Assembly: GCA_000998275.1 (NCBI GenBank)
Contig: LCDA01000003.1
Location: 1,596-65,595, forward strand
Source: Candidatus Collierbacteria bacterium GW2011_GWA2_42_17
Lineage (GTDB): Bacteria > Patescibacteriota > Microgenomatia > UBA1400 > MFAQ01
Length of the DNA: 64,000 nucleotides
Direction of reading: 5' to 3'
The notes beneath the pieces were generated by a model. It made no database searches. It saw only the letters and a program-made list of their open reading frames with translations, and was not told the origin of the DNA. A program made the translations under genes and the position numbers. Positions within the stretch are counted from its first letter, which is position 1; each line of letters starts with the position of its first letter. Below are positions 2,718 through 17,225 of the stretch, one piece after another.

Positions 2718-3740
2718 TTAATTAATAATATTGAAACGGCCGGTGTACATACCCATGGAGCAGGAGAAGACAAGAGCACCGAGTTTTTTGGGGGTGAACT
2801 CGATGATGGTTTCTCCGGTTTCGGGGAGAAGTTTTTGAATGTTTAAGGCAGGGATAGTGAAGGAACGAGAGCAAGACTGAACATTGATAGTCCTAAGAGT
2901 GAGGCGGACAGGAATGTCTTTTTTTAGGGTAAGGGAGTTAGGAGAGTAACCACTATTGTTGACGGTGATAGAGATGTTTTGAATACCGTTTTTAACTGAA
3001 ACATTGGTATCGTCGGTACTCGCTGAAAGAACCGAAGGGTTGACGGCAGCTCGATAGAAGTTCTGGATGGTGTAAACAGAACCAGTTAAACCGACGCCGT
3101 TGTTTACGGAGTAAATGGACATACCGATAAGGGCGGCAGCGGCAATTTGGGGAAAATACTTTTGAAAAGCTTTGGCACCGGAGCTAAGGAGGAAACCAAA
3201 AAGCAGGAAGGTAGGCGAGGTGCCTACAATAAAGGCAAACATAATAGCGGCGCCGTATAAAGGATTGCCGGTACCAATGGCGATAACCTCAGTAGCCTGG
3301 GTGACAGCGCAAGGAAGAAAGACTGTTGATAAACCCAGAAGAAAAGGAGCAAAAAGAGACTGACTTTGAGACTCATTTTTGGCCAGACGGACTAGAAATT
3401 TGGGGGGTTTGATGACGAAGTAACGGAAAAGGGGGTGGAGGTTAAGAAGGTTACCGGCGATACCCAAAAGATAAATGCCGATGATGATCTGAATCCAACC
3501 TCGAGTGATAGGAGAAAGGACGAGGGTTTGGCCGAGAGCACCAAGAAGGAAGCCGAGGAGAGTATGAATTAAGAGTTTACCGGTGAGGAAGGAGACGATG
3601 GGGAGGGCCTTGTTGGTTTTGATCAGACTGTTTTCCTGATGGGCGATTACCGAAGTAAGAAGTCCTCCCTGGATGGCAAGGCAGGTGAGTCCGCCGGTAG
3701 TTAAGCCGGTGAGGAAGATGAAGAAGAGATTAGTGTTCAT
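2718..3740 (-). CDS. DsbD_2-like polytopic membrane protein fused to a C-terminal cupredoxin-like domain
   Basis: Multiple TM helices with an LPC motif (FLPCAVTQATE) and GNPLYGAAIMFAF, as in the second family member at 5153-6691. The C-terminal roughly 100 aa (PNSLTLKKDIPVRLTLRTINVQSC...FSCSMGMYTGRFNI) is a cupredoxin-like beta-sandwich signature. Start set at the internal ATG (MNTNLFF). Confidence 0.65.
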   Translation of the reverse strand: MNTNLFFIFLTGLTTGGLTCLAIQGGLLTSVIAHQENSLIKTNKALPIVSFLTGKLLIHTLLGFLLGALGQTLVLSPITRGWIQIIIGIYLLGIAGNLLNLHPLFRYFVIKPPKFLVRLAKNESQSQSLFAPFLLGLSTVFLPCAVTQATEVIAIGTGNPLYGAAIMFAFIVGTSPTFLLFGFLLSSGAKAFQKYFPQIAAAALIGMSIYSVNNGVGLTGSVYTIQNFYRAAVNPSVLSASTDDTNVSVKNGIQNISITVNNSGYSPNSLTLKKDIPVRLTLRTINVQSCSRSFTIPALNIQKLLPETGETIIEFTPKKLGALVFSCSMGMYTGRFNIIN

Positions 3741-3773
3741 AAATCGGTATTTATTACTATACCAGCTTTGCGT

Positions 3774-3788
3774 GCTACAATACGTAGT
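3774..3788. promoter_or_regulatory. Candidate BlaI/CopY-type operator (GCTAC-N5-GTAGT) abutting the repressor start codon
   Basis: gctacaatacgtagt, with GTAGTAT directly before ATG 3791. Related to the dyads at 5138-5152 and 13316-13330. Confidence 0.4.
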
Positions 3789-3790
3789 AT

Positions 3791-4165
3791 ATGGAATCAA
3801 AATTGTTTGGTTGCTTGGAACAACAGATTATAGATGTTCTTTGGCAAGAAAAGAAACCCTTAAAGCCATTGGATGTCTTGAAACAGCTTAAAGGGGATTA
3901 TGCCTACACGACAGTGATGACGGTTTTGAAGAGAATGTCAGATAAAAAGGTATTAACCAGAGAAATGGTTGGTAAAGCATATGTCTACTCTCCAGTTTCG
4001 AACAAAGAGGTCTATATTAAGAAGAGCTTGAAAAACCTGTATGGTAATTTGATGGATACTTATGGCGAACTTGCGATATCTCAGTTCGTAGACATGGTAA
4101 AAAACGACCGAGAGGATATGAACCTTCTTAAACGGTTTATTGATTCTTCCAAAAAAGCTAAATGA
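3791..4165 (+). CDS. BlaI/MecI/CopY-family winged-helix transcriptional repressor
   Basis: LEQQIIDVLWQEKKPLKPLDVLKQL...YAYTTVMTVLKRMSDKKVL matches the penicillinase-repressor family N-terminal wHTH. There is no C-terminal CxC...CxC copper motif. ATGA overlap with the next gene. Confidence 0.85.
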   Translation: MESKLFGCLEQQIIDVLWQEKKPLKPLDVLKQLKGDYAYTTVMTVLKRMSDKKVLTREMVGKAYVYSPVSNKEVYIKKSLKNLYGNLMDTYGELAISQFVDMVKNDREDMNLLKRFIDSSKKAK

Positions 4166-5109
4166 ATTATAGAAAGTTAAATTCTTTTTCTAATCTTTTT
4201 TTCGTGTTTTTGGTGTTTGTGGGTTTGATTTATACGGTGTTCCTTTTTAAATTATTTTTGGATACGTCTCCCGGGTTGGTGATGTTGTTGATTTTTTTGA
4301 TGGATGCGATTCGGTATGGATACAGTATGGTTTCGATCCAGTCTTTGGGTGTACTACTTGTCTCTTCCCTGATTAGTATTACCACTCAAGTTCTGATATA
4401 CAGATACATCAAAGCGTTGTTGATGACATTAAAGATTGTGGGTGGCACCCGTCATTTTACGAAGAGTCTCGAACTGGTTTCAATAAAGGATAAAATAGTT
4501 ACCTTTAGTTCCAGTTCTATCAGAGCTTTCACTTCTGGACTGTTACATCCAAGAATTCATCTCCCTAAAAACCTTAAGGAAACGAATTCTAGTCTGGAAG
4601 TAAAAGCGATAATGCTCCACGAGAAACAACACACTTTGGCTTTCGATCCGTTTAAGAGCTGGGTCGTTGGTGGAATTAAGGAGATATTACCGGGATTTCC
4701 TTTCAAAAAATGGATATTTGGACACTATGATGTCTTGGTGGAGTTAACGGCCGATGCATACGCCGAAAAAATATTAAACAAAAGACTGCCAATAATTTCT
4801 GCCTTATATAAACAGTATGAAGGCAGCGGCAAAAATATTATTCCAGCGGTCGGTTTTTCGAATAGCCAATCAGAAAGGATTCATATCTTGGTGGGGAAGG
4901 AACGAGTCAAAATAAAAGGACCTTTGGTGGTATCGTCTGTTGTGGTAATGACATTATTTGTTGGTACATTGCTGACGAGGAACAAAGACTTATTTTATAG
5001 CTGCCCACACTTAGATTCGTGTATTTTAAATGTCATTGCCCAAAAAACAAGTAACTTTGGGGTGTCGGAAATAGAAGCCGCCCAGTCAGTATTAGGTAGC
5101 CATCAATGA
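4162..5109 (+). CDS. BlaR1/MecR1-like M56 family membrane metallopeptidase (signal transducer without a penicillin-binding sensor domain)
   Basis: N-terminal TM helices, then AFTSGLLHPRIHLPKNL and the zinc motif HEKQH (HExxH) typical of M56. Translationally coupled to the BlaI-like gene. Confidence 0.8.
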   Translation: MNYRKLNSFSNLFFVFLVFVGLIYTVFLFKLFLDTSPGLVMLLIFLMDAIRYGYSMVSIQSLGVLLVSSLISITTQVLIYRYIKALLMTLKIVGGTRHFTKSLELVSIKDKIVTFSSSSIRAFTSGLLHPRIHLPKNLKETNSSLEVKAIMLHEKQHTLAFDPFKSWVVGGIKEILPGFPFKKWIFGHYDVLVELTADAYAEKILNKRLPIISALYKQYEGSGKNIIPAVGFSNSQSERIHILVGKERVKIKGPLVVSSVVVMTLFVGTLLTRNKDLFYSCPHLDSCILNVIAQKTSNFGVSEIEAAQSVLGSHQ

Positions 5110-5134
5110 ACTTCTCCTTGACAATTAATGAAAA

Positions 5135-5155
5135 CATACTACACTATGTAGTATG
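5135..5155. promoter_or_regulatory. Perfect 9/3/9 palindrome operator CATACTACA-cta-TGTAGTATG overlapping the start codon; TTGACA -35 at 5118-5123
   Basis: The palindrome is read directly. Its right arm ends in ATG 5153. Core ACTAC-N5-GTAGT. The -35-like TTGACA lies 30 nt upstream of the ATG, suggesting a leaderless or very short leader. Confidence 0.55.
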
Positions 5156-6691
5156 TTGAATTATAATCAGGAGCGGACAGGCTTAAAATTTTATATAAGG
5201 GGGATGCACTGTGCTTCTTGCGAGATGATTATTGAGAAGAAGTTGCGCAAAGAAAAGGGAGTTTTGCTGGTTGAGGTTGACTTGAATAAAGGATTGGTGG
5301 AGATAGCAACATCTGGAAATAGCCATCTTTCGGAAGATTATCTAAATTATCTTTTTAAAGATGACGGCTATACCTTTTTTAGTAAACCGATCGATAAATC
5401 GATACAGGTCAAGGGAAAAACCGAGTGCGAAACTGCCTGCGAGAATAAGCCCAGCGGAGAAATAAACTACACGCCTTATATGATAGCGGCCTTGTTTTTG
5501 GCTGGTTTTTATATCTTGCAAAAAACAGGCTTTGCTTCATTGGTTTCCGTTAATTCCCAGTCCTCACTACCGGTATTTTTCTTGTTTGGCATACTGGCCG
5601 GACTATCAAGCTGTGCGGCTTTGGTGGGAGGAATCATTCTTTCGTTAAGTAAACAATGGCTGTCTATTTATGATAAAAATGATTCTTCGCTAAAAAAATC
5701 CGAACCGCATATTCTTTTTAACGTCGGTCGGGTTTTGGGATACGGAGTTTTTGGGGGTTTGTTGGGGTTTTTGGGAAATGTATTTAGAGTTTCCCCGGCT
5801 TTTTCGGCATCTTTAGTAATTGGGGTTTCGATTTTGATGATACTTCTTGGTTTGCAAATGCTTGGAGTTAAGGCTTTAGCTAAGTACCAGCTACGCTTCC
5901 CAAAATCTATCACTGGTAAATTTTCTAACGAAGAAAACTTTCAGGGTAGGTTTGGGCCATTTTTGATGGGAGCACTTACTTTCTTTCTACCTTGTGGATT
6001 CACAATCACTGTTCAGGCGCTGGCCCTAGCTTCGGGAAATCCGCTACAAGGAGCTTTGATAATGGCGGTTTTTGCCTTAGGTACAATTCCCGGTTTGTTG
6101 GTGATTGGACTGAGTAGTGTGAAACTATTTAGTAATCCCGAAATAGCGAAACAATTTTCGATTGTGGCAGGAATCTTGGTTCTATTTTTTGCCGCTTTTA
6201 ATATTAACGCTCAGATGTCCGTCTTGGGATTATCAAATATTAGTGATGTCTTGGCGGCGACAACTTCGGCGGGATCTTCGGATAAAAGCCGCGACACTTC
6301 CTTGGTGCCTGTCGTGTCCGGAAAACAAATTATCAAGATGAATGCCTCGTCAAGAAGTTATACCCCGAACCGATTTAAGATTAAAGTCGGTCAGCCGGTA
6401 CGATTGGAGGTTACTGATGTGGGAACGAGCGGCTGTACCAATGCCATAATTTCTAAACTGTGGAATGGTCAAATATCATTAACTCAGGGTAAGACATCCG
6501 TAAAAGAGTTTACTCCCTCAAAGGTGGGTCTTTATAAATTTTCTTGCTGGATGGGTATGGTTTCCGGAACAATTGAAGTGGTTGACGGAACGGGTTCTTC
6601 AGGGACAACGACAAGTACCAAACCAATCGAGTCCGGCGCCAAAGGATGCGGTTGTGGTGGGGGTAGTGGTTCCTGCGGAGGTTCTAAGTAA
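5153..6691 (+). CDS. HMA domain + DsbD_2-like membrane domain + cupredoxin-like domain fusion protein with a Cys/Gly-rich C-terminal tail
   Basis: N-terminal GMHCASCE (HMA), polytopic core with FFLPCGFTITVQALALASGNPLQGALIMAVFALG, C-terminal PNRFKIKVGQPVRLEVTDVGTSGC...FSCWMGMVSGTIEV cupredoxin-like module, and a GCGCGGGSGSCGGSK tail. Confidence 0.7.
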   Translation: MLNYNQERTGLKFYIRGMHCASCEMIIEKKLRKEKGVLLVEVDLNKGLVEIATSGNSHLSEDYLNYLFKDDGYTFFSKPIDKSIQVKGKTECETACENKPSGEINYTPYMIAALFLAGFYILQKTGFASLVSVNSQSSLPVFFLFGILAGLSSCAALVGGIILSLSKQWLSIYDKNDSSLKKSEPHILFNVGRVLGYGVFGGLLGFLGNVFRVSPAFSASLVIGVSILMILLGLQMLGVKALAKYQLRFPKSITGKFSNEENFQGRFGPFLMGALTFFLPCGFTITVQALALASGNPLQGALIMAVFALGTIPGLLVIGLSSVKLFSNPEIAKQFSIVAGILVLFFAAFNINAQMSVLGLSNISDVLAATTSAGSSDKSRDTSLVPVVSGKQIIKMNASSRSYTPNRFKIKVGQPVRLEVTDVGTSGCTNAIISKLWNGQISLTQGKTSVKEFTPSKVGLYKFSCWMGMVSGTIEVVDGTGSSGTTTSTKPIESGAKGCGCGGGSGSCGGSK

Positions 6692-6709
6692 TTACAAATT
6701 ATAAAAAAT

Positions 6710-6928
6710 ATGAAGATAAACAATCTTTCCTTTCTAATAAATGACATGCACTGTAAATCATGTATTAAAATAATTGAAGCTACCCTTTCAGAGATCCCGG
6801 GTGTAAAAATAACCGACTCGGATTTTAAGAAAAAAACTGTAAGTATTACTTACAACATTGATACGACGACCCCGGAAATATTAATAAATACCATAAAAGA
6901 AATCGGTTATAAAGCTGAGATCGTCTAA
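6710..6928 (+). CDS. copZ: Copper chaperone CopZ (HMA domain)
   Basis: 72 aa with [14 protein letters not shown] (CxxC) and a ferredoxin-like HMA layout, immediately upstream of the Cu-ATPase. Confidence 0.85.
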
Positions 6929-6933
6929 AACTT

Positions 6934-9315
6934 ATGAGCGTCACCAACAATGAGGTAAAAGACAGCACTTCCCAGGTAGCCTATCTGGAAATTTCCGGTA
7001 TGCATTGCAGTAGTTGTGCGAGTCTGATTGAAAGGTCTCTTACAAAAACAAAGGGAGTTCAGGAGGCAAATGTTAATTTTGCGACGAGTAAAGCCAGAGT
7101 CAAGTTTGATACAAAACTGGCAACTTTGAAAAACCTCAAGGAAGCCGTTAAATCCGCCGGTTACAGAGCGGAGGTTCCTTCAGAAACAAGTTCCAAGTCG
7201 GAAACCGAAAAAAGATCGCTCGAAATTAAGTATTGGTTTACCAAGTTTATTGCCGGCTTGGTGTTAAGTTTACCGATGCTGTTCTTTATGGTGTATGACT
7301 TTGTCCCCAATCTTCCCTTCGCCAGAACAATCATGCCTATCTCCGGATTGATTTCTTTAATTCTTGCCACGCCGGTTCAGTTCTGGGTCGGTAATAACTT
7401 TATTCAAGGGGCGATCTCTGCCTTTAAGATGAAAACCTTTAGCATGGATTCGCTAATTGCCATTGGTACACTGACGGCCTTTGTTTATAGTACCTTTGAG
7501 TATGTAGCGTACATTGTGAATACCGGCTCAGTTTTTGGTTTAGATGGAATGAAAATAGGGAATCTATATTATGAAGTAGCGTCTCTTTTGATTACGTTTG
7601 TGGCTTTGGGAAAATGGCTCGAAGCTAAAGCTAAAGGAAAGACTTCACAGGCAATCGAAAAACTGGTCGGGTTGGCACCGAAAACGGCCAGAGTAATGAG
7701 AGATGGTTCTCCGGTTGACCTTCCCGTTGGAGAGGTGATTGTCGGAGACATTGTCGTTGTTCGTCCAGGAGAGCGAATTCCCGTGGATGGAGTAATTGTT
7801 TCAGGGTCGAGCTCGGTAGATGAGTCAGCTCTTACCGGAGAGTCGATTCCCGTAGAAAAAGTGGTTGGAGCGAAAGTGTTTACAGCGACGATTAATAAAA
7901 CCGGAAGTTTTGAGTTTGAGGTACAAAAAGTGGGTGATGATACAGTATTGTCGCAGATAGTTAAATTGATTGAGGATGCTCAAGGAACCAAGGCTCCAAT
8001 TCAAGGATTTGCCGACAAAATATCTTCGATTTTTGTGCCTACAGTTATCGTGATAGCGATACTGACTTTCCTACTTTGGTACTTTATTCTGGGAGCCTCC
8101 TTTGAGTTTGCTATTTTGGCCTTTGTCTCGGTAATTGTGATTGCCTGTCCGTGTGCTTTGGGACTTGCTACCCCTACTGCGATCATGGTGGCGACAGGTA
8201 AGGGTGCCGAACAAGGAATCCTGATTAAGGGTGGAGAGCCATTGGAAACTGCCTGCAAGATTGAGACTATTGTTTTCGACAAAACAGGGACACTCACTAA
8301 AGGCCAACCGGAAGTGACGGATATCGTGAACTACTCAGACAAATCGGAGCAGGAAATACTAGCGATTCTTTATGCTTTGGAGTCAAAATCCGAGCACCCC
8401 TTGGCGGCGGCCATTGTTGATTACTGCAAGAGTCGAGTTTCGACAAAAGACAGGCAGACTGCAACGGCGGACTTTAAAGCAGTTCCTGGTCATGGAGTTG
8501 AGGGCAAGATTAACGGAAAAACGTATTTTGTGGGTAATCGCCGCTTGATGGAGTTGAAGAATATTCACTCATACTCACTTGTGGATTTGGAGAAACTGGA
8601 AGAGGGTGGTAAAACGGCGATGCTAATTGCTTCGACGAAAAAAGTATTGGGTATCGTAGCCGTGGCTGATCGAGTGAAAGAAACAACGGCCAAGGTAGTA
8701 AAAAAACTGCAGGATCAGGGAATTGAAGTTTATATGATCACCGGCGACAACCAGAGGACGGCCAACGCGATTGCTAAACAAGTTGGCATTACCAAGGTAC
8801 TGGCTGAAGTACTGCCACAGAATAAGGCGGAGGAGGTCAAGAAGTTACAAGCACAGGGAAAGATTGTGGCCATGGTAGGGGACGGTATTAACGACTCTCC
8901 GGCATTAGTTCAATCCGACCTGGGAATTGTGATGGCATCTGGTGCCGACGTGGCTTTGGAGTCCGGAAGTATCATCATTATGAATAATGATCTGGAAGGG
9001 ATACTAACAGCGATCAAATTGAGTAAAGAGACGGTTGGAAAGATTAAACAAAATATGTTTTTTGCTCTCTTTTACAATGTTTTGGGTATCCCGGTAGCGG
9101 CTCGAGCTTTTGTCTCGTTTGGTTTGGTTCTTAAACCAGAACTGGCCGGACTAGCGATGGCTTTGTCTTCGGTCTCGGTGGTAAGCAACTCATTACTACT
9201 TAAAGGATTTAATCCAAAACGGTTTAATCTCATTTCCCGTCTGGCTCCCATTGTAATGACCGTGGGTTTCCTTTTTATCTTTTGGCAGTTTGCTTCTGTC
9301 TCATCAATGAAGTGA
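6934..9315 (+). CDS. copA: Copper-translocating P1B-type ATPase
   Basis: N-terminal HMA (GMHCSSCAS), TM4 [17 protein letters not shown] phosphorylation site, [10 protein letters not shown] hinge, TM5 YN and TM6 MALSS Cu(I) signature. Confidence 0.95.
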
Positions 9316-10496: not shown

Positions 10497-10694
10497 TTAG
10501 TGACAATTTTTTTTGGAATTATCACCACTATTATCATGGCTCATGTTTTTCATCATAAAGATATGCATAACCGGACAGATGAGAAAAATACCATATGGTA
10601 GCAGAATATTCCAGGGAACTTTGAGGACATAGACAACAATAAAAGAGAGAGTAACTAAGACAAGAGATATTTTAAAGGTATTGTTTATTTTCAT
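10497..10694 (-). CDS. Small membrane protein, DUF2933-like (CP.MH..MM motif)
   Basis: Taken from the internal Met MKINNTFK... It has one TM plus LICPVMHIFMMKNMSHD, resembling the metal-island-associated DUF2933 signature. Start is uncertain. Confidence 0.4.
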   Translation of the reverse strand: MKINNTFKISLVLVTLSFIVVYVLKVPWNILLPYGIFLICPVMHIFMMKNMSHDNSGDNSKKNCH

Positions 10695-10696
10695 GT

Positions 10697-11008
10697 TCAA
10701 GGTAAAAGAGGTCCGCCGTTGTATCCCGGTATCCACCAGGGAATAAATAAATAAACGATAAAGATGTAGCTTGTGATTGAATAGATGGCGACAAGCAAAA
10801 GTGCTTTTAACAGGCCCGTTTTTTGTCTGCGGAGTTGCCACCAAGCAAGAAATAACAGGAGCAAACTAGGAATTAATAAATATTTATTTTGGCTCTCATT
10901 GGTGAGTTTCAATAAATATCCCGAGCTGATGAGGAAGATGAGAATACCGCCACAACAAATGAAGTGAATTATGATGAAGGGAATTGCGCCTCCAATTAAT
11001 TTTTTCAT
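10697..11008 (-). CDS. MerT-like small membrane protein with a vicinal Cys pair in TM1
   Basis: 103 aa, three predicted TMs. IHFICCGGILIFL recalls the MerT CC motif. Lies within the metal island. Confidence 0.4.
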   Translation of the reverse strand: MKKLIGGAIPFIIIHFICCGGILIFLISSGYLLKLTNESQNKYLLIPSLLLLFLAWWQLRRQKTGLLKALLLVAIYSITSYIFIVYLFIPWWIPGYNGGPLLP

Positions 11009-11035: not shown

Positions 11036-11980
11036 TTAAACTCCACAACCGCCACCGCCCTGCTTGGGTGGTTGTTCAATGATGCCTTCACTGCTTAGCC
11101 ATTGCTTGGCTGCCTGCCAGCCGGAGGATGAAGAGAACTCTCGACCAAGGAGTGTTTTGGCATCGATGTCGGCGAAGTTTTTACTTTCTTTATTTTTGAA
11201 ATACAAGGCTAGGTCATAGTAGTTACCTGGGAACCAAAAAGCGCTGAAATATTTACCTGCCTCGTACATTTCTTTTTCACTGGCTCCGTTTGAGGCCATT
11301 AACTCTAAGACAGCGAGTAAGGCCATGCCATGATTACAGTCGGGGAAAGCGGTAGAGTTGTTGCAGCAAGGACGGAAAATATTTGAAGCAACTTCTTTTA
11401 CCAGTTTCTCTTGTGCCGGGGTGAGTTTGATGAAGTTTGCTTTGGAGTAGTATTTCATGGCATCACCTTTTGCCAGAGTCCAACCACCGGTAGAAGCAAA
11501 TCTAGCGGCACCTTTAAGCCCGCCGTCTTTTACCATGTCTCCCGCGTCCAAGATGGATGATTTGTTGGACAACCCAAGTGCCCAGAAGAAGTTCAGGAGA
11601 AATTTGCTGTTTAATGAGGTAATTTTTACAGGAGTGTTGCTACCTTTGGTGAGGATATCAAGCTGTTCCTGATCGAGGTCTTGTCCGGAAGCACTGTATG
11701 CCGCTTTAAATTTTTCCAAGTCGATAACACCGAGAGCGATCATTTTTGGACCCAGATCACCAAAAGCGGCGTTTATTTCATATCCTTGATCAGGATTGAC
11801 CTCTTCAAGGGAGACAGTTTCCCCTTTGTTTGTTTGACTCTGTGTGGTTTGTTCTTGGTTGGCGGTTCCGCCACTATTAATTTTCACAATATAGAAGCCT
11901 TGGCCTATATTCACTCCAAAACTGGCGAGTAAAAGTAGGGGAATAACTTTACTTCGGAAATTAGTCGTCTTTTCTTTCAT
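11036..11980 (-). CDS. Secreted hypothetical protein with Cys-rich segment and GGGGCGV C-terminus
   Basis: Signal peptide (VIPLLLLASFGVNIG), RPCCNNSTAFPDCNHGMA cluster, C-terminal QPPKQGGGGCGV. Overlaps the upstream gene by 20 nt, consistent with an operon. Confidence 0.55.
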   Translation of the reverse strand: MKEKTTNFRSKVIPLLLLASFGVNIGQGFYIVKINSGGTANQEQTTQSQTNKGETVSLEEVNPDQGYEINAAFGDLGPKMIALGVIDLEKFKAAYSASGQDLDQEQLDILTKGSNTPVKITSLNSKFLLNFFWALGLSNKSSILDAGDMVKDGGLKGAARFASTGGWTLAKGDAMKYYSKANFIKLTPAQEKLVKEVASNIFRPCCNNSTAFPDCNHGMALLAVLELMASNGASEKEMYEAGKYFSAFWFPGNYYDLALYFKNKESKNFADIDAKTLLGREFSSSSGWQAAKQWLSSEGIIEQPPKQGGGGCGV

Positions 11981-12800: not shown

Positions 12801-13315
12801 TTGGTAATGTTGGCTTTCATTCTTAATATGATCTTTGAGAAATCGGGGTCGTTGGTGTCGATGTATACCTCACGGATGATGACACCATAAACCGGCATGG
12901 TGAAGGGGCGATAGATGACTCTAATGGTTGCTTCAGCTCCAGGAGCTATGTTGACTACCTCGAGAGATCGCTTGCTCATACCATATTCTTTGGTTTCTTG
13001 GTCTCCGCTAATTATTTTGGCTGAGGTACAACCGCAACTGGAATTAATATTTCTAAGCTGAAGTGTTTTTTCACCAATATTTTTGACAATAAAGTCTCTC
13101 GTAATGGTGTCTTTTAATTTCGAGATTCCCGTGTCGACAAAGTTTTCGGGTAATTCAACTTTGGGTTTTTGGGTATCTGTCTGGGTGTAAGAGGTGGTAG
13201 GGGAGCTTGAGGTTTTTTTACTGAGGAGACTGATGGCAAACAGCGAAAGTATCGCTACTAAAGCTGTGCCGAAGACGATCATAATGATTGTTTTGATGCT
13301 GGTAGTATTCAACAT
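12797..13315 (-). CDS. DUF1573-family membrane-anchored protein (SCGCT motif)
   Basis: N-terminal TM, then an Ig-like region with NINSSCGCTSAKI, characteristic of DUF1573. Start is probably the ATG at 13315 (the track's longer ORF starts at an alternative codon at 13351). Confidence 0.55.
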   Translation of the reverse strand: MLNTTSIKTIIMIVFGTALVAILSLFAISLLSKKTSSSPTTSYTQTDTQKPKVELPENFVDTGISKLKDTITRDFIVKNIGEKTLQLRNINSSCGCTSAKIISGDQETKEYGMSKRSLEVVNIAPGAEATIRVIYRPFTMPVYGVIIREVYIDTNDPDFSKIILRMKANITK

Positions 13316-13333
13316 ACTACCTAGTGTAGTAGA
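13313..13333. promoter_or_regulatory. Second ACTAC-N5-GTAGT dyad operator in the divergent promoter region; -10 TATAAT at 13340-13345
   Basis: catACTACctagtGTAGTag. On the minus strand this reads CTACTACA-ctag-GTAGTATG, ending in the ATG of the DUF1573 gene. A perfect TATAAT sits 9 nt before ATG 13354. Confidence 0.5.
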
Positions 13334-13353
13334 ATATTTTATAATAGTCAACT

Positions 13354-13806
13354 ATGAAAATATTAGCCGTCTTTCTTACCATTGCAGTTATCGTCGTTGG
13401 TGTCGTGATATTCAAATCATCACGAGCGAAACCATTGATTGTTTACGATGATCAAGAAATAACCAGATACGTGGCTCCGACAATAGAGCCACGAGTCGAG
13501 CCGAAACCCACTTCGACATCAAGTCAAAAAGCAGTTCAAGTGATTAGAGCCACTTACAATATTGAGGATGGTCTTAGCCCAAGCCGATTTAAAGTGAAAG
13601 CCGGTGTTCCGGTTAGACTGGAAGTTAAGGCCATTGTTGATGGTCTGGGTTGTATGGGAAGTATTACAATTCCTGAGCTAACGGATGAGGTTTATGGATT
13701 TGAGAAGGATGTAACTAATGTATTCGAAGTAACACCACCCTCTCCAGGAGAGTACGTGATTACCTGTGCTATGGGAATTCCACACGGAGTAATTATTGCC
13801 GAGTAA
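13354..13806 (+). CDS. Membrane-anchored cupredoxin-like domain protein
   Basis: N-terminal TM, then SPSRFKVKAGVPVRLEVKAIVDGLGCMGSITIPEL...GEYVITCAMGIPHGVII. Same module as the C-termini of the two DsbD_2 fusions. Confidence 0.6.
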   Translation: MKILAVFLTIAVIVVGVVIFKSSRAKPLIVYDDQEITRYVAPTIEPRVEPKPTSTSSQKAVQVIRATYNIEDGLSPSRFKVKAGVPVRLEVKAIVDGLGCMGSITIPELTDEVYGFEKDVTNVFEVTPPSPGEYVITCAMGIPHGVIIAE

Positions 13807-14287
13807 CAAAGTTTTTACGGACGCTGGTGATCATTTGTTTGACACACCATTGGGCATACATATATCCAAAAAGGAAGCCAAGTAGTCGAGCTGCTCCTCT
13901 GGGTAACTCGTAGTCGATAAAGACAACCAATCGAGACCCTTTCTCTTGAGGTGTAATTTCAAAACCCATGCGGTAATTGCCAATCACATAAAGTTTGGGG
14001 TAGGCAACCGTTTCCCATGATTTTAATTTGGGTGGTTCGTGTTGGGTGACCACTTCGTCGAGATAGATGTTTAGTCCAAAAGCTTTGCCTTTGAGCTGAA
14101 TATGAGAACCAACTTTTTGACCTAAATCATTGTCAATTTCAGTGACCATACTGCCTCCTCCCATCATCAGGGAAGACCGTCCCATGTGAGACGAAAGATT
14201 GGCGTGGTTGTCAACAAAAGAAAAGAGCGCTTGGGGGGAGGCGGAGACGATTAAAGATTCAGCATAATGGTAGGGTAGTTTAAACAT
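13793..14287 (-). CDS. SRPBCC (START/polyketide-cyclase-like) superfamily protein
   Basis: 164 aa. Spacing of hydrophobic beta-strands and a C-terminal helix (ARLLGFLFGYMYAQWCVKQM) is consistent with Polyketide_cyc2-like folds. Confidence 0.5.
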   Translation of the reverse strand: MFKLPYHYAESLIVSASPQALFSFVDNHANLSSHMGRSSLMMGGGSMVTEIDNDLGQKVGSHIQLKGKAFGLNIYLDEVVTQHEPPKLKSWETVAYPKLYVIGNYRMGFEITPQEKGSRLVVFIDYELPRGAARLLGFLFGYMYAQWCVKQMITSVRKNFVTRQ

Positions 14288-14299
14288 ATTATTGATCGT

Positions 14300-16552
14300 T
14301 TATGAAATAAGATCTTTTTCAACCCTTTTAAGTAAGACGGCGTTGACGGCGACGATAATTGATGAGATAGACATGAGCAAGGCAGAAAATTCAGGACGAA
14401 GAGTAATGCCAAATCGTGGGTAAAGTACTCCGGCGGCAATGGGGATGGCCAGTAGGTTGTAAACACTAGCCCAAGCCAGGTTTTCTTTCATCTTTCTGAC
14501 GGTAGCCTTACTTAATTTTATGGCTCTAAGAATATCAAGGGGGTCTGATTTCATCAAAACAACATTGGCCGTTTCGATAGCGACGTCTGTGCCAGCACCA
14601 ATGGCGATACCAATGTTGGACTGGGCCAAGGCCGGCGCGTCGTTGACGCCGTCACCAACCATGGCGACAAATTTCCCCTCATCTTGGAGTTTTTTGACAT
14701 ACCGAGCTTTGTCTCCTGGAAGAACATCGGCGAAAATGCGGTCTATTCCCAGCTGTTTTCCGATGGTTTCGGCGGTTTTACTGTTGTCTCCGGTAATCAT
14801 AGCGATTTCGAGACCGAGATGCTTCATTCGTTCGACGGCGACTTTGGCGGTTGGCTTAATGGGATCTTGGGCGGCAGCCACTCCAGCAATTTTTCCATCA
14901 ACTGCTAAGATCATGATTGTTTTTCCTTCCGAAAGTAATCTATCGATATCCAATTTAAGGGGAGAAATGTCTACCTTTCGATCAGACATGAGCTTAATCG
15001 TCCCGACCAAGATGTGTTTTTGAGAAACAATTGCTTCCACTCCATGGCCGGCAATGGAATTAAATTTTTCAATTTTTTCCGGGAACTTAAGACCACGTTT
15101 TTTTGTTTCTTCCAGGATGGCTTTGCTTAAGGGGTGGCCGGACTTTGCTTCTACGGCGCTGTCTAGTATAAGGATTTCATCAGACTTAAAACCCTCGGCG
15201 GCAAGGACATCGGTAATTTTTGGTTTTCCTTCCGTAAGGGTTCCTGTTTTGTCCATGACTATCGTTTGAATCTTGGAGACCTGTTCCAAGGTAGGGGCGT
15301 CTTTAATCAAAATATTATATTTGGCACCCAAGCCGGTACCAACGGCGACGGCAGTTGGAGTGGCAAGACCAAGAGCGTCCGGACAGGCGATGACTACCGT
15401 GGAGATGGCGAAGGTGAGAGCGACCAACAAGGGCTGACCGATGATAAAGAACCAAATAATAAAGGTAAGGAGACCGCCGCCAACGGCTACGACGACCAGA
15501 TATTGAGCAAAGCGGTCAGCTATTTTTTGACCTGGAGCTTTGGAGTTTTGGGCTGTTTCGACCATTTTGACAATCTGCCCCAGAGCAGTGTCGGCGCCAA
15601 TTTTGGTAGCTTTAAACTTGACGGAACCGGAGGTGTTGATAGAACCGCCGATAACTTCCGCACCAATGGTTTTGGATACCGGTATAGATTCTCCCGTAAC
15701 CAAGGATTCGTCGATTGCTGTTTGACCTTCGGTAATTACGCCATCGACAGGCACTTTGTCTCCCGGTTTTAGAATAATAGTGTCACCGACAAGAACTTCA
15801 GCGGTAGAGACGAGTACTTCTTTACCATGACGGAGTACTCTTGTTTGGGGTGGTACCAGATCGAAAAGAGCTTGAAGGGCATCGGTAGTGCCTCTTCTGG
15901 ACTTCATTTCCATCCAGTGACCAAAAAGGACAAAGGTGGTGAGCATGGCAGCCGCTTCGTAAAAAGACTCATTACTACCCAAGAGTGTTAAAGCAATACT
16001 AAAGAAGTAAGCAGCACTGATACCGACAGCGATCAACACGGCCATGTTGAGAGTTTTTTGTTTGAAAATGGCGATGTATGAAGAGTAGAGAAAAATCCAA
16101 CCACAGTAAAAATAAACAGGAGTTGTTAAGAGAAGAAGCAACCAGTTTACGGGGATAGGTGAAGGAAGACTCAGACCAAAGATATTGACGCCCATTTGAG
16201 AGTAGAGGACGATGGGAATGGTGAGAATCAGAGAAACAAAAAATTTGTTTCTAATGTCTTCTTCCATCATTTTGGCCATTTCACGACCAGCGAGTCCAGT
16301 GTGATCCATACCCATAGCCATAGTCATACTCATCTTAAATTTTTCCCAGAAACCCATTTGGGCAACCGGTTTCATGGTATGGCCCTGATGGCTTTCATGT
16401 TTGTTGTCTGAAGAAGGGGTTTCGTGGTGTTCGTGATCACTATGTTTCATCTCTTGGGGAACAAGAGCCATTCCACACTTAGGACAGTTCCCCGGCTTGT
16501 CGGAGGTGACTTCGGGGTGCATAGGGCAGACGTAAGAAGGGGTCATGTTCAT
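14300..16552 (-). CDS. P1B-type heavy-metal ATPase with CPD TM4 motif, N-terminal CxxxxC...CPxCG metal-binding module, and His- and Met-rich linker
   Basis: YVCPMHPEVTSDKPGNCPKCGMAL (HMBD-type N-terminus), HSDHEHHETPSSDNKHESHQGH, MSMTMAMGMDH. TM4 reads IACPDALGLATP (checked on the DNA). DKTGTLT, GDGVNDAPAL, TM5 YN, TM6 MSISS. Start at ATG 16552 (MNMTPSY); the upstream extension in the track is unlikely to be coding. Confidence 0.9.
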   Translation of the reverse strand: MNMTPSYVCPMHPEVTSDKPGNCPKCGMALVPQEMKHSDHEHHETPSSDNKHESHQGHTMKPVAQMGFWEKFKMSMTMAMGMDHTGLAGREMAKMMEEDIRNKFFVSLILTIPIVLYSQMGVNIFGLSLPSPIPVNWLLLLLTTPVYFYCGWIFLYSSYIAIFKQKTLNMAVLIAVGISAAYFFSIALTLLGSNESFYEAAAMLTTFVLFGHWMEMKSRRGTTDALQALFDLVPPQTRVLRHGKEVLVSTAEVLVGDTIILKPGDKVPVDGVITEGQTAIDESLVTGESIPVSKTIGAEVIGGSINTSGSVKFKATKIGADTALGQIVKMVETAQNSKAPGQKIADRFAQYLVVVAVGGGLLTFIIWFFIIGQPLLVALTFAISTVVIACPDALGLATPTAVAVGTGLGAKYNILIKDAPTLEQVSKIQTIVMDKTGTLTEGKPKITDVLAAEGFKSDEILILDSAVEAKSGHPLSKAILEETKKRGLKFPEKIEKFNSIAGHGVEAIVSQKHILVGTIKLMSDRKVDISPLKLDIDRLLSEGKTIMILAVDGKIAGVAAAQDPIKPTAKVAVERMKHLGLEIAMITGDNSKTAETIGKQLGIDRIFADVLPGDKARYVKKLQDEGKFVAMVGDGVNDAPALAQSNIGIAIGAGTDVAIETANVVLMKSDPLDILRAIKLSKATVRKMKENLAWASVYNLLAIPIAAGVLYPRFGITLRPEFSALLMSISSIIVAVNAVLLKRVEKDLIS

Positions 16553-16624
16553 ACATTTAGTATAAGCATTTTTTTTGATAAATATTTTTTCGGCCTTGAT
16601 TTGGGAATGATGTAGAATCGAGTT

Positions 16625-17104
16625 ATGAACGAAAAAATAAAGCCAGTACCGACTGATTTTAATTCGGAAAAAATGGAGATTGTTATGAGGGCAAACGACG
16701 AAGGTCCACTGGGGGAGATAGAGAGTTGGAAGGAAGCTTTTCCGGAGGTTGAGTTTATGGATGTTGATGAAGCGTTTAGCGGTGACAAGATCGATTGGGA
16801 TCAAAGGACAGTAGTGGAGAAGGCGCTGTTTGTTGCTTTTATGAAAGATCCTCAGTCGACAAGTGTTAGATATGAAATGAAGCTGGACAATATTTACCTG
16901 TCCAAGACAGTTACCGACTCCGAAAGAGTCTGGTGGATGTGGATGGCAGGCTGTTTTTCCGGTGGGGAGCTTGATGAAAAAGCAATAAAAACGTTTTTAT
17001 GGTATGTGGATGAGAGTATTTTAGCGAGACGATTTACCAGGGATATAGATCTGGAAAGGGTAAAAAACATCAAGTACAAAATAAAAGTGGCGCCTTTGGA
17101 ATAA
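16625..17104 (+). CDS. Hypothetical protein
   Basis: 159-aa ORF, acidic N-terminal half and W-rich segment (RVWWMWMAGCFSGG). No known motif. Confidence 0.45.
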   Translation: MNEKIKPVPTDFNSEKMEIVMRANDEGPLGEIESWKEAFPEVEFMDVDEAFSGDKIDWDQRTVVEKALFVAFMKDPQSTSVRYEMKLDNIYLSKTVTDSERVWWMWMAGCFSGGELDEKAIKTFLWYVDESILARRFTRDIDLERVKNIKYKIKVAPLE

Positions 17105-17225
17105 CAAAGAACCTCCTTGCGGAGGCTCCTTGCGAAAATCACTTGCGTAACTTTCTGACTTAATGATTGCTCATTAAGCTATTTATAACTGTAATGTATA
17201 TTACAGATTTTGTCAAGGGGGTAGT
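17105..17225 (+). repeat. Structured repeat element copy A (three hairpins)
   Basis: Hairpin 1 is cctcc-ttgc-ggagg, hairpin 2 is cttaatga-ttgc-tcattaag, hairpin 3 is ctgtaat-gtat-attacag. Ends in TGTCAAG...ATATAAAAA. Confidence 0.45.

Follow-up and report, generated by a model that had tools for sequence, protein, structure and literature searches.

Gene content and family assignment

The window, by which we mean the whole 64,000-nucleotide stretch of contig LCDA01000003.1 from a Candidatus Collierbacteria bacterium that was analyzed, contains a gene for a P1B ATPase with Cys-Pro-Asp (CPD) in TM4. The positions of this gene, of the features within it and of its neighbors are given in Table 1.

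Table 1. Features of the CPD pump and its neighborhood, with positions in the window and residue numbers of the CPD pump.
Feature	Position	Strand	Basis or remark
CPD-type P1B ATPase gene	14300..16552	-	ORF, 750 aa, stop codon included in coordinates
HMBD module (residues 7-32, CPMHPEV...CPKCGM)	16457..16534	-	Pfam PF19335, E 7.7e-16
His-rich linker (residues 37-58, 8 His), HSDHEHHETPSSDNKHESHQGH	16379..16444	-	Composition; varies among homologues
Met-rich segment (residues 66-96), MGFWEKFKMSMTMAMGMDHTGLAGREMAKMM, directly before first membrane helix	16265..16357	-	Conserved
M170 in LNMAV, counterpart of the entry Met in LpCopA (M148) and AfCopA (M158)	16043..16045	-	3rfu alignment
GHWMEM (residues 211-216) around E215, equivalent to LpCopA exit residue E205; CopB-clade signature	15905..15922	-	Alignment
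TM4 Cys390-Pro391-Asp392 (tgt ccg gac)	15377..15385	-	Reverse-strand read
DKTGT phosphorylation motif (D434)	15239..15253	-	Motif read; 43 residues past P391
TM5 Tyr698-Asn699 (YN motif)	14456..14461	-	Aligned to Y688, N689 of LpCopA
TM6 MSISS (M727...S731, residues 727-731)	14360..14374	-	M727/S731 equivalent to M717/S721 of LpCopA
SRPBCC-like gene, 12 nt downstream of ATPase, same strand	13793..14287	-	Polyketide_cyc2 E 2.6e-5, weaker than Pfam cut-off
Cupredoxin_1-domain protein, convergent with ATPase unit	13354..13806	+	PF13473, E 4e-7
DUF2933 small membrane protein	10497..10694	-	Domain match; family recurs beside CPD ATPases
Second P1B ATPase, canonical CPC CopA type	6934..9315	+	Domain and motif reading

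The reading frame of the CPD pump is full length, and the catalytic motifs TGES (residues 286-289), DKTGT (434-438), GHPL (472-475), MITGDN and GDGVNDAP (633-640) were all read intact, together with CPD at residues 390-392. The features required of the P1B subfamily, namely DKTGT, TGE(S), HP, GDGxNDxP and a TM4 xPx, are each present, and the Pfam domains are HMBD, E1-E2_ATPase and Hydrolase. The copper-translocating ATPase model TIGR01511 scored 565 bits against a cut-off of 397 and TIGR01525 scored 585 bits against 346; the ZntA models, at 315-362 bits, were far under their cut-offs of 1005-1240. The protein is 100% identical to P0001 of Candidatus Collierbacteria, and an identical protein is present on 13 contigs. 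LpCopA (3rfu) was the best match among solved structures, aligning with residues 98-744 at an E-value of 2e-165; no full-length CopB-clade chain was found among the 60 PDB matches listed.

The SRPBCC-like gene is probably co-transcribed with the CPD ATPase, judging by the spacing alone. The CPC CopA-type ATPase is 5 kb away, and the copper island of the window also holds two DsbD_2-Cupredoxin fusions, one of which includes an HMA domain, and a BlaI/CopY-type repressor; no regulator directly linked to the CPD ATPase gene was found in the window. A scan of positions 13300-17200 returned fewer promoter-like sites than shuffled sequence and no excess of terminator-like sites over the shuffles. DUF2933 also adjoins CPD ATPases on plasmids of Pseudomonas, Polaromonas and Nocardia, and the neighbors of plasmid CPD homologues include, besides DUF2933, multicopper oxidase, CopA (CPC ATPase), HMA proteins, CueP, a four-helix-bundle copper-binding protein and DUF305. 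Among the 120 GTDB loci listed, a multicopper oxidase occurred within 8 kb in 10 and a CPC ATPase in 11, these counts being based on 8-kb stretches in which the gene was not centered, and the HMA count in the same survey probably takes in N-terminal domains of the pumps themselves. Taken together, the gene context points to an association of the CPD pump with copper handling, and not to a particular transported species or direction of use in the cell.

Occurrence and conservation of the CPD motif

The original prediction that TM4 reads CPD was borne out when the DNA was re-read on the reverse strand: the codons atc gcc tgt ccg gac gct ctt ggt ctt gcc act cca give IACPDALGLATP, with Cys at 15385-15383, Pro at 15382-15380 and Asp (GAC) at 15379-15377. 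In the 3rfu alignment D392 is paired with C384 of LpCopA. All of the 120 best-matching homologues (75-100% identity, Patescibacteria) have CPD, and a column comparison placed Asp at this position in 125 of 125 clade members, Cys in CPC pumps and His in the six CPH representatives. Scanning GTDB species genomes for CPDALGLATP yielded at least 120 loci, from about 10 phyla among the matches listed; the carriers include Actinomycetota, Proteobacteria, Chloroflexota, Patescibacteria and other phyla, often with the gene in plasmid copper-resistance islands. The Asp codon was GAC in 68 and GAT in 52 of the 120 GTDB loci listed and, since both codons are used, conservation is at the amino-acid level. 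As judged from this conservation the Asp is under selection, and its invariance in the 125 clade members excludes CPD as a chance motif. A sequencing or assembly error at the Asp codon, about which the original prediction had been cautious, and likewise a decaying, inactive paralogue can be dismissed, given the identical protein on 13 contigs, CPD in 120/120 best homologues and, with either Asp codon in use, in at least 120 GTDB species, and an intact frame with every catalytic motif, and no point in support of either was found.

N-terminal region and membrane-site residues

The original prediction had described a Cys module, a His-rich stretch and a Met-rich stretch at the N-terminus, and all three were located: CPMHPEV...CPKCGM at residues 9-28, which is PF19335, the His-rich linker at residues 37-58 and MSMTMAMGMDH at residues 74-84. 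The HMBD module aligned to the YTCPMHPEIRQSAPGHCPLCGM segment of LpCopA, and PF19335 is assigned (precomputed Pfam) to all 120 of the closest homologues listed. Nine His fall within the first 100 residues, including HSDHEHHE...HESHQGH, and this region is 9% His and 15% Met compared with 0.9% His and 2.3% Met in the rest of the pump. Across 120 homologues the N-terminal His fraction has a median of 7%, with the linker sequence itself unconserved. The Met-rich segment is near-identical across the Patescibacteria homologues and has a counterpart in other CPD pumps, GM(S/D)MxDMxxDMRNRF; M92 and M96 are CPD-clade signatures that are rare in CPC pumps.

Also upheld was the assignment of TM5 YN and TM6 MSISS to the copper type, as Y698, N699 and residues 727-731 are present and aligned to LpCopA, S730 being paired with S720. 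TM5 of the CPD pump reads VYNLLAIP; the consensus of the CPD family is GYN in TM5 and MSGSS in TM6, with some members having MSAST. The LpCopA entry, binding and exit residues kept in the CPD pump are M170, E199, E215, D346, C390, Y698, N699, M727 and S731, and the entry role of the Met equivalent to M170 has been described (PMC9433437). Near the exit residue, H212, M216 and G221 occur in 97-100% of CPD pumps and in 6/6 CPH pumps, but in no more than 3% of CPC pumps.

Placement among the P1B subgroups

CPD and CPH pumps formed one clade in 100 of 100 neighbor-joining (NJ) bootstraps with 150 sequences and, after masking of the CPx column, in 50 of 50 with 264 sequences, and the CPH group was nested within a CPD grade, in trees that were built on cluster representatives picked by similarity to the CPD pump and in which CPH sampling was thin (n=6). 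CPD and CPH pumps have the same residues at nine positions (H212, M216, G221, L352, A356, G360, P671, M688 and A702), residues that CPC pumps have seldom or never, and the GHWxEM exit motif and TM3 signatures are likewise found in both CPD and CPH pumps and lacking in CPC pumps. A His/Met-rich N-terminus is a further feature in which the CPD pump resembles the CPH pumps. The CPH representative P0149 has the same architecture as the CPD pump, with HMBD, a His-rich segment and MSASS.

Of the P1B-1 features, CPC in TM4 is absent, with CPD instead, and YN in TM5 and MxxSS in TM6 are present. No N-terminal HMA (ferredoxin-fold) domain with CxxC was identified by Pfam in the CPD pump, which has HMBD instead; since LpCopA, a characterized P1B-1 pump, has the same HMBD-type N-terminus, the HMA domain is not universal in P1B-1. 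The P1B-2 marks (CPC, TM5 Lys and TM6 Asp) are missing, TM5 having YN and TM6 MSISS without Asp, and a Zn/Cd-type or Co-type pump was rejected on the grounds that the TM5 and TM6 signatures do not match. For P1B-3, CPH in TM4 is absent, Asp replacing the His, and where P1B-3 has GYN(x)4P / MSxST the CPD pump has VYNLLAIP / MSISS, with two CPH representatives also having xxxSS. By definition (PMC5552934), P1B-3 pumps carry a metal-binding stretch of 30-100 residues at the N-terminus that is rich in His, and such a region is present. The pump also groups with the CPH pumps, both in the NJ clade and at the nine shared positions. By sequence, the CPD pump is a member of the CopB-like (P1B-3) lineage, of a CPD subtype.

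To our knowledge CPD is not among the textbook CPC/CPH/SPC signatures, and to this extent the original prediction, that the motif fits no standard subgroup, was correct; the protein, however, lies inside the CopB/P1B-3 clade in every bootstrap. It had also recognized that CPD being common in a known subgroup would count against it, and this is largely what we found (P1B-3a of Cubillas 2017; at least 120 GTDB loci, about 10 phyla). The name 'P1B-3a' was given to the CPD subtype by Cubillas et al. 2017 (PMC5552934) for pumps of Xanthobacter autotrophicus, Nitrobacter hamburgensis as well as Bradyrhizobium sp., and was defined by CPD in TM4 (TM6 in that paper's numbering), YN(x)4P, MSxSS and grouping with P1B-3, all of which apply to the present pump. 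The further descriptors in that paper, few N-terminal His and a length greater than that of CopB, were derived from three rhizobial sequences; they do not describe the present pump, with its His-rich N-terminus and 750 aa, and fail across the wider CPD family too. The CPD variant has, as such, been known since 2017 and the present gene is a further case; a new subgroup outside P1B-1 to P1B-7 is excluded by the trees, the signature positions and the earlier P1B-3a description. Searches of the literature by motif, peptide and plasmid-homologue accessions identified no biochemical work on CPD pumps, and only Cubillas 2017 surfaced.

Proposed function and alternatives

Based on these sequence comparisons, we think it probable that the gene encodes a metal exporter, driven by ATP and of the CopB-like (P1B-3) branch, which Candidatus Collierbacteria would use as a second copper pump beside the CPC CopA. 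By analogy, in both metal and oxidation state, the substrate is most likely Cu(I), given the current assignment of the sister CPH pumps to Cu+; against this reading is that Cu(I) is not usually partnered by a ligand as hard as a carboxylate. We envisage that the HMBD module in the cytosol and the His/Met-rich N-terminus would capture copper, or that copper would be handed over at the membrane platform, and that it would then move past M170 to the TM4 site of Cys390 and Asp392. Occlusion between TM4, TM5 and TM6 would involve Cys390, Asp392 and Met727, with Tyr698, Asn699 and Ser731 close by, and release past the GHWMEM exit motif would occur once Asp434 was phosphorylated. Asp392 may be a stand-in for the His of CopB CPH and the second Cys of CopA CPC (for the role of the latter, see PMC9433437), contributing an oxygen ligand to a site of mixed sulfur/oxygen type.

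A bolder proposal, that the CPD pumps are a biochemically distinct class in the CopB lineage, is speculative and in our opinion unlikely. In such a class, the Asp, located where Ca- and Na,K-ATPases have their cation-binding Glu in M4, would create a mixed sulfur/oxygen site that alters the cargo (to Cu(II) or another divalent metal) or introduces a counter-transport of protons. CPD could also be the older state, with the CPH of classical CopB derived from it, as the trees nest the CPH group within a CPD grade.

It is also rather doubtful that the Asp shifts selectivity such that CPD pumps complement CopA by exporting Cu(II) or a harder divalent ion (Zn, Co, Cd, Pb) and not Cu(I). Consistent with a shift, the 43 residues from P391 to D434 match the spacing from P308 to D351 in SERCA, by which D392 would correspond in position to Glu309, a cation-binding residue of the Ca-ATPase. 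A CPD pump beside a CPC pump in the window, in Rhodococcus, at locus L131 and in 11 of the 120 GTDB loci listed suggests non-redundancy, but CopA/CopB pairs that pump the same metal are common. In addition, Asp392 would provide an oxygen donor at the position of the second CPC Cys, where anomalous copper density was observed in AfCopA (PMC9433437). On the other hand, TM5 YN and TM6 MSxSS are of the copper type, the CPD pump has neither a Zn-type (TM6 Asp, TM5 Lys) nor a Co-type (HEGxT) signature, and the neighbors of CPD pumps are copper proteins rather than Zn or Co ones. The same argument was, moreover, once used for CPH/CopB, a type whose substrate has been disputed, being considered first Cu2+ and later Cu+, and which has since been re-assigned to Cu+ (Purohit 2018, in the summary given in PMC10654040).

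Very improbable is that the protein is a low-rate pump (cf. FixI/CopA2, CtaA) feeding extracytoplasmic cuproproteins, here the neighboring cupredoxin-domain proteins, rather than a detoxification pump. A cupredoxin gene does adjoin the ATPase unit, two DsbD_2-Cupredoxin fusions are in the island and the separate canonical CopA could handle detoxification; however, copper binding by the Cupredoxin_1 domains is putative, transport rate leaves no distinguishing mark in sequence, and plasmid CPD pumps are located in resistance islands of the typical kind, among genes for multicopper oxidase, CueP and RND/TolC components and genes of mobile elements.

With a CopB-like second copper pump as the preferred reading, the consequence for the window is mainly an accurate annotation, that of a CopA/CopB-like pair in the copper island of a Candidatus Collierbacteria bacterium with a small genome. 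More broadly, the CPD pumps represent natural and widespread variation at a key ligand position and offer a ready test of the third CPx residue tuning metal choice.

Comparison with known systems

The CPD pump and the P1B-3a pumps of Cubillas have in common CPDALGLATP in TM4, YN(x)4P in TM5 and MSxSS in TM6, and a plasmid pump of Bradyrhizobium sp. BTAi1, from a genus named by Cubillas, is 47% identical to it and belongs to the same clade. Rhizobial and actinobacterial CPD pumps are about 810-830 aa long and have an HMA-like N-terminal domain without CxxC, CGYHC, and GYN / MSGSS, whereas the present pump has 750 aa, HMBD instead, and VYN / MSISS, and falls in a separate Patescibacteria sub-clade. 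Its similarities to the CopB/P1B-3 CPH pumps (CopB of Enterococcus hirae, Archaeoglobus fulgidus and Sphaerobacter thermophilus) are a single clade, the His-rich N-terminus, GHWxEM, the TM3 signatures, YN and its probable use as the second copper pump next to CopA; it differs from them by Asp at the defining His of CPH and by MSISS as opposed to MSxST in TM6. With Legionella pneumophila CopA (PDB 3RFU, 4BBJ; P1B-1 Cu(I)) it shares the N-terminal CPMHPE...CPxCGM and all site residues but one: LpCopA has CPC, and the CPD pump has D392 at C384, along with CopB-type residues near the exit Glu and in TM3. The CopA of the window and the CPD pump are both copper-type P1B ATPases of the same metal island, with 42% identity, but the former carries an HMA domain that includes CxxC, reads CPC in TM4 and has MALSS for TM6, and the CPD pump is without these.

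The CPD pump and its copper-handling neighborhood

The presence of a CPD motif (Cys390-Pro391-Asp392) in TM4 of the 750-residue P1B ATPase was confirmed on the DNA, where the minus-strand codons are atc gcc tgt ccg gac gct ctt ggt ctt gcc act cca (IACPDALGLATP) and the Asp codon is GAC at 15379-15377. The other elements named in the original prediction, the CPMHPE...CPKCGM module, the His- and Met-rich stretches and the TM5 YN and TM6 MSISS residues, were all located. His and Met account for 9% and 15% of the first 100 residues, versus 0.9% and 2.3% of the remainder. The catalytic motifs TGES, DKTGT, GHPL, MITGDN and GDGVNDAP are all intact, and, with a score of 565 bits for TIGR01511 (cut-off 397), NCBIfam assigned the protein to the family of copper P1B pumps. 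The gene is real and, judged by its sequence, functional-looking.

Features of the CPD pump and of the surrounding window
Feature	Window position	Strand	Residues of CPD pump	Remarks
DsbD_2-Cupredoxin_1 fusion	2718-3800	-
BlaI/CopY-type repressor	3791-4165	+
M56 peptidase-like protein	4162-5109	+
HMA-DsbD_2-Cupredoxin_1 fusion	5153-6691	+		Cys/Gly-rich tail
Canonical CopA	6934-9315	+		HMA, CPC, MALSS; 42% identical to CPD pump
103-aa membrane protein	10697-11008	-		HFICCGG motif
314-aa protein	11036-11980	-		RPCCNNSTxFPDCNHGMA motif (conserved), C-terminal GGGGCGV
CPD pump	14300-16552	-	750 residues	N-terminal start MNMTPSYVCPMHPEV
CPMHPE...CPKCGM module			9-28	Pfam HMBD, PF19335, E 8e-16
His-rich stretch			37-58
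MSMTMAMGMDH			74-84
TM5 VYN			Y698, N699
TM6 MSISS			727-731

The neighbors of CPD pumps in the window, in other Patescibacteria and on plasmids were all copper-handling. Further metal-island genes in the window encode DUF2933, DsbD_TM, DUF1573 and Cupredoxin_1, and the CPD pump is followed after 12 nt by an SRPBCC-like gene. In other Patescibacteria the neighbors include DUF5676, DUF305, DsbA, YtkA and DUF302, as well as two-component or ArsR regulators and a CopY-type repressor together with M56. One of these loci also has a second pump, of the HMA type. Plasmid-borne CPD pumps adjoin a multicopper oxidase, an HMA protein and a CPC pump (Rhodococcus), a copper oxidase, TolC and a metal-sensitive regulator (Bradyrhizobium), CueP and DUF305 (Deinococcus), or DUF2933, an ICMT-family gene, DUF305, a four-helix-bundle copper-binding protein and ppk2 (Pseudomonas, Polaromonas and Nocardia).

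Several other features of these loci were observed. In the window, positions 2718-9315 form a copper island upstream of the CPD pump, the cupredoxin (+) and SRPBCC-like (-) genes are convergent with 3' ends that overlap by 14 nt (13793-13806), and GC skew was positive in every 2-kb bin, with no switch within 1-64000. The 314-aa protein, for which there was no Pfam match, is 44% identical to the product of a gene (1398-2324) from the island that contains the CPD pump of a WWE3 bacterium (L127), and each of the two adjoins DUF1573 genes. Between its gene and DUF2933 lies that of the 103-aa membrane protein, which had no significant Pfam match. The polyphosphate kinase gene ppk2 was found in six of the 120 GTDB loci listed; on Pseudomonas pG20 (L123, 5893-6768) and Polaromonas pPNAP02 (L125, 5916-6770) it precedes the CPD pump by 23-24 nt, on Bradyrhizobium pBBta01 (L001, 3371-4162) it is ~3.6 kb away, and polyphosphate may thus be linked to this pump type. 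CPD pumps of cultivated bacteria (L001, L002, L123, L125 and L126) have an N-terminal HMA-like domain without a CxxC pair, then a conserved CGYHCxG motif and a linker, rich in His and Met, that ends in GM(S/D)MxDMxxDMRNRF, whereas those of Patescibacteria have HMBD instead of that domain.

Reality and spread of the CPD motif

A sequencing error at the Asp codon was ruled out, as a protein identical to the pump, recorded as hypothetical for Candidatus Collierbacteria, is known from 13 contigs, CPD is present in all 120 of its best homologues (75-100% identity; Microgenomates and other Patescibacteria) and two Asp codons are in use. A degenerate-DNA search for CPDALGLATP, with one genome per GTDB species, returned at least 120 loci, and the matches listed include Actinomycetota, Alpha-, Beta- and Gammaproteobacteria, Chloroflexota, Gemmatimonadota, Acidobacteriota, Armatimonadota, Bacteroidota, Myxococcota, Dormibacterota and several Patescibacteria lineages. 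Since both GAC (68) and GAT (52) occur in the 120 loci listed, selection is on the amino acid Asp. The family consensus is (I/V)(A/T)CPDALGLATP, GYN(x)3P and MSGSS, of which the VYN and MSISS of our pump are a Patescibacteria variant. The sole archaeon among the matches listed was a Bathyarchaeota MAG (L112, VBBR01000102.1), which could reflect horizontal transfer or genome-bin contamination.

Placement among P1B pumps

The best 150 representatives of 50%-identity clusters comprised eight CPD, 133 CPC and six CPH sequences; six of the eight CPD representatives held the top six ranks or rank 21, and the other two, at ranks 135 and 139, were fragments. In a neighbor-joining tree of 150 sequences (604 columns, 100 bootstraps), CPD and CPH pumps formed one clade (100/100) within which CPH was monophyletic (100/100) and CPD alone was not (1/100). 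The same was found with 264 sequences (123 CPD, six CPH, 134 CPC; 50 bootstraps) and the CPx column masked, the corresponding values being 50/50, 50/50 and 0/50. Patescibacteria CPD pumps are the first branch and the CPH group is nested in a CPD grade, because of which CPD may be an older state than the CPH of classical CopB, on a thin sampling of six CPH sequences and neighbor-joining.

Nine positions are common to CPD and CPH pumps but seldom or never found in CPC pumps: H212, M216 and G221 (GHWxEM around the exit Glu), L352, A356 and G360 (TM3), and P671, M688 and A702. In addition, the CPH representative P0149 has a like layout of HMBD, His-rich linker and MSASS, with His at the position of Asp. 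Given the clade, the common positions and this layout, the pump belongs to the CopB-like (P1B-3) lineage, and an unknown P1B subgroup was ruled out. The motif itself is neither CPC nor CPH, as had been predicted, but its bearer does not stand outside the known subgroups. Some CPD pumps, namely P0124 and one on a Deinococcus plasmid (L124, 6725-9238), combine CPDALALATP with a CopB-type MSAST in TM6, and look intermediate between MSGSS CPD pumps and CPH CopB.

CPD pumps have been grouped with P1B-3 as subtype P1B-3a, according to Cubillas et al. (PMC5552934), and a plasmid pump of Bradyrhizobium sp. BTAi1, from one of the three genera named there, shares IACPDALGLATP with our pump, to which it is 47% identical. 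The motif is common in a branch already noticed, and the searchable literature yielded no biochemical work on its pumps.

Role of Asp392 and the transported metal

The best solved relative is Legionella pneumophila CopA (LpCopA, PDB 3rfu; E 2e-165, residues 98-744), which likewise has a CPMHPE...CPxCGM module. In the alignment, its M148, E189, E205, D337, C382, C384, Y688, N689, M717 and S721 correspond to M170, E199, E215, D346, C390, D392, Y698, N699, M727 and S731, respectively. For Archaeoglobus CopA (AfCopA), PMC9433437 describes anomalous copper density at the second CPC cysteine, a transient entry site of both CPC cysteines and the entry Met, and passage of copper to a site including the TM6 Met. 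Since the second cysteine is a copper ligand in AfCopA, Asp392 would stand in for a direct ligand. The 43-residue spacing of P391 and D434 equals that of P308 and D351 in SERCA numbering, in which E309 follows P308; by this analogy, Asp392 would occupy the position of the cation-binding Glu309.

Family, clade, intactness, conservation and copper context are all established by this analysis; the ion, its oxidation state and the exact role of Asp392 are inferred. Asp could give the pump an altered metal specificity, as originally suggested, and the ligand chemistry of Asp is the one point in its favor in this analysis, and like reasoning proved misleading for CPH, as CopB pumps were at first assigned Cu2+ and are now regarded as Cu+ pumps (PMC10654040, citing Purohit 2018). 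The best-supported reading is that of a CopB-type copper exporter with Asp in place of the CopB His.

The most useful outcome is the family picture, in which the pump is one member of a widespread, already noticed CPD branch of CopB-like pumps. As CPD is common, forms one clade with CPH and has CPH nested inside it, these pumps are a sensible target for learning how the third residue of CPx sets metal choice. The CPD pump would work beside CopA; pairs of CPC and CPD pumps are recurrent across loci, as CopA/CopB pairs are.
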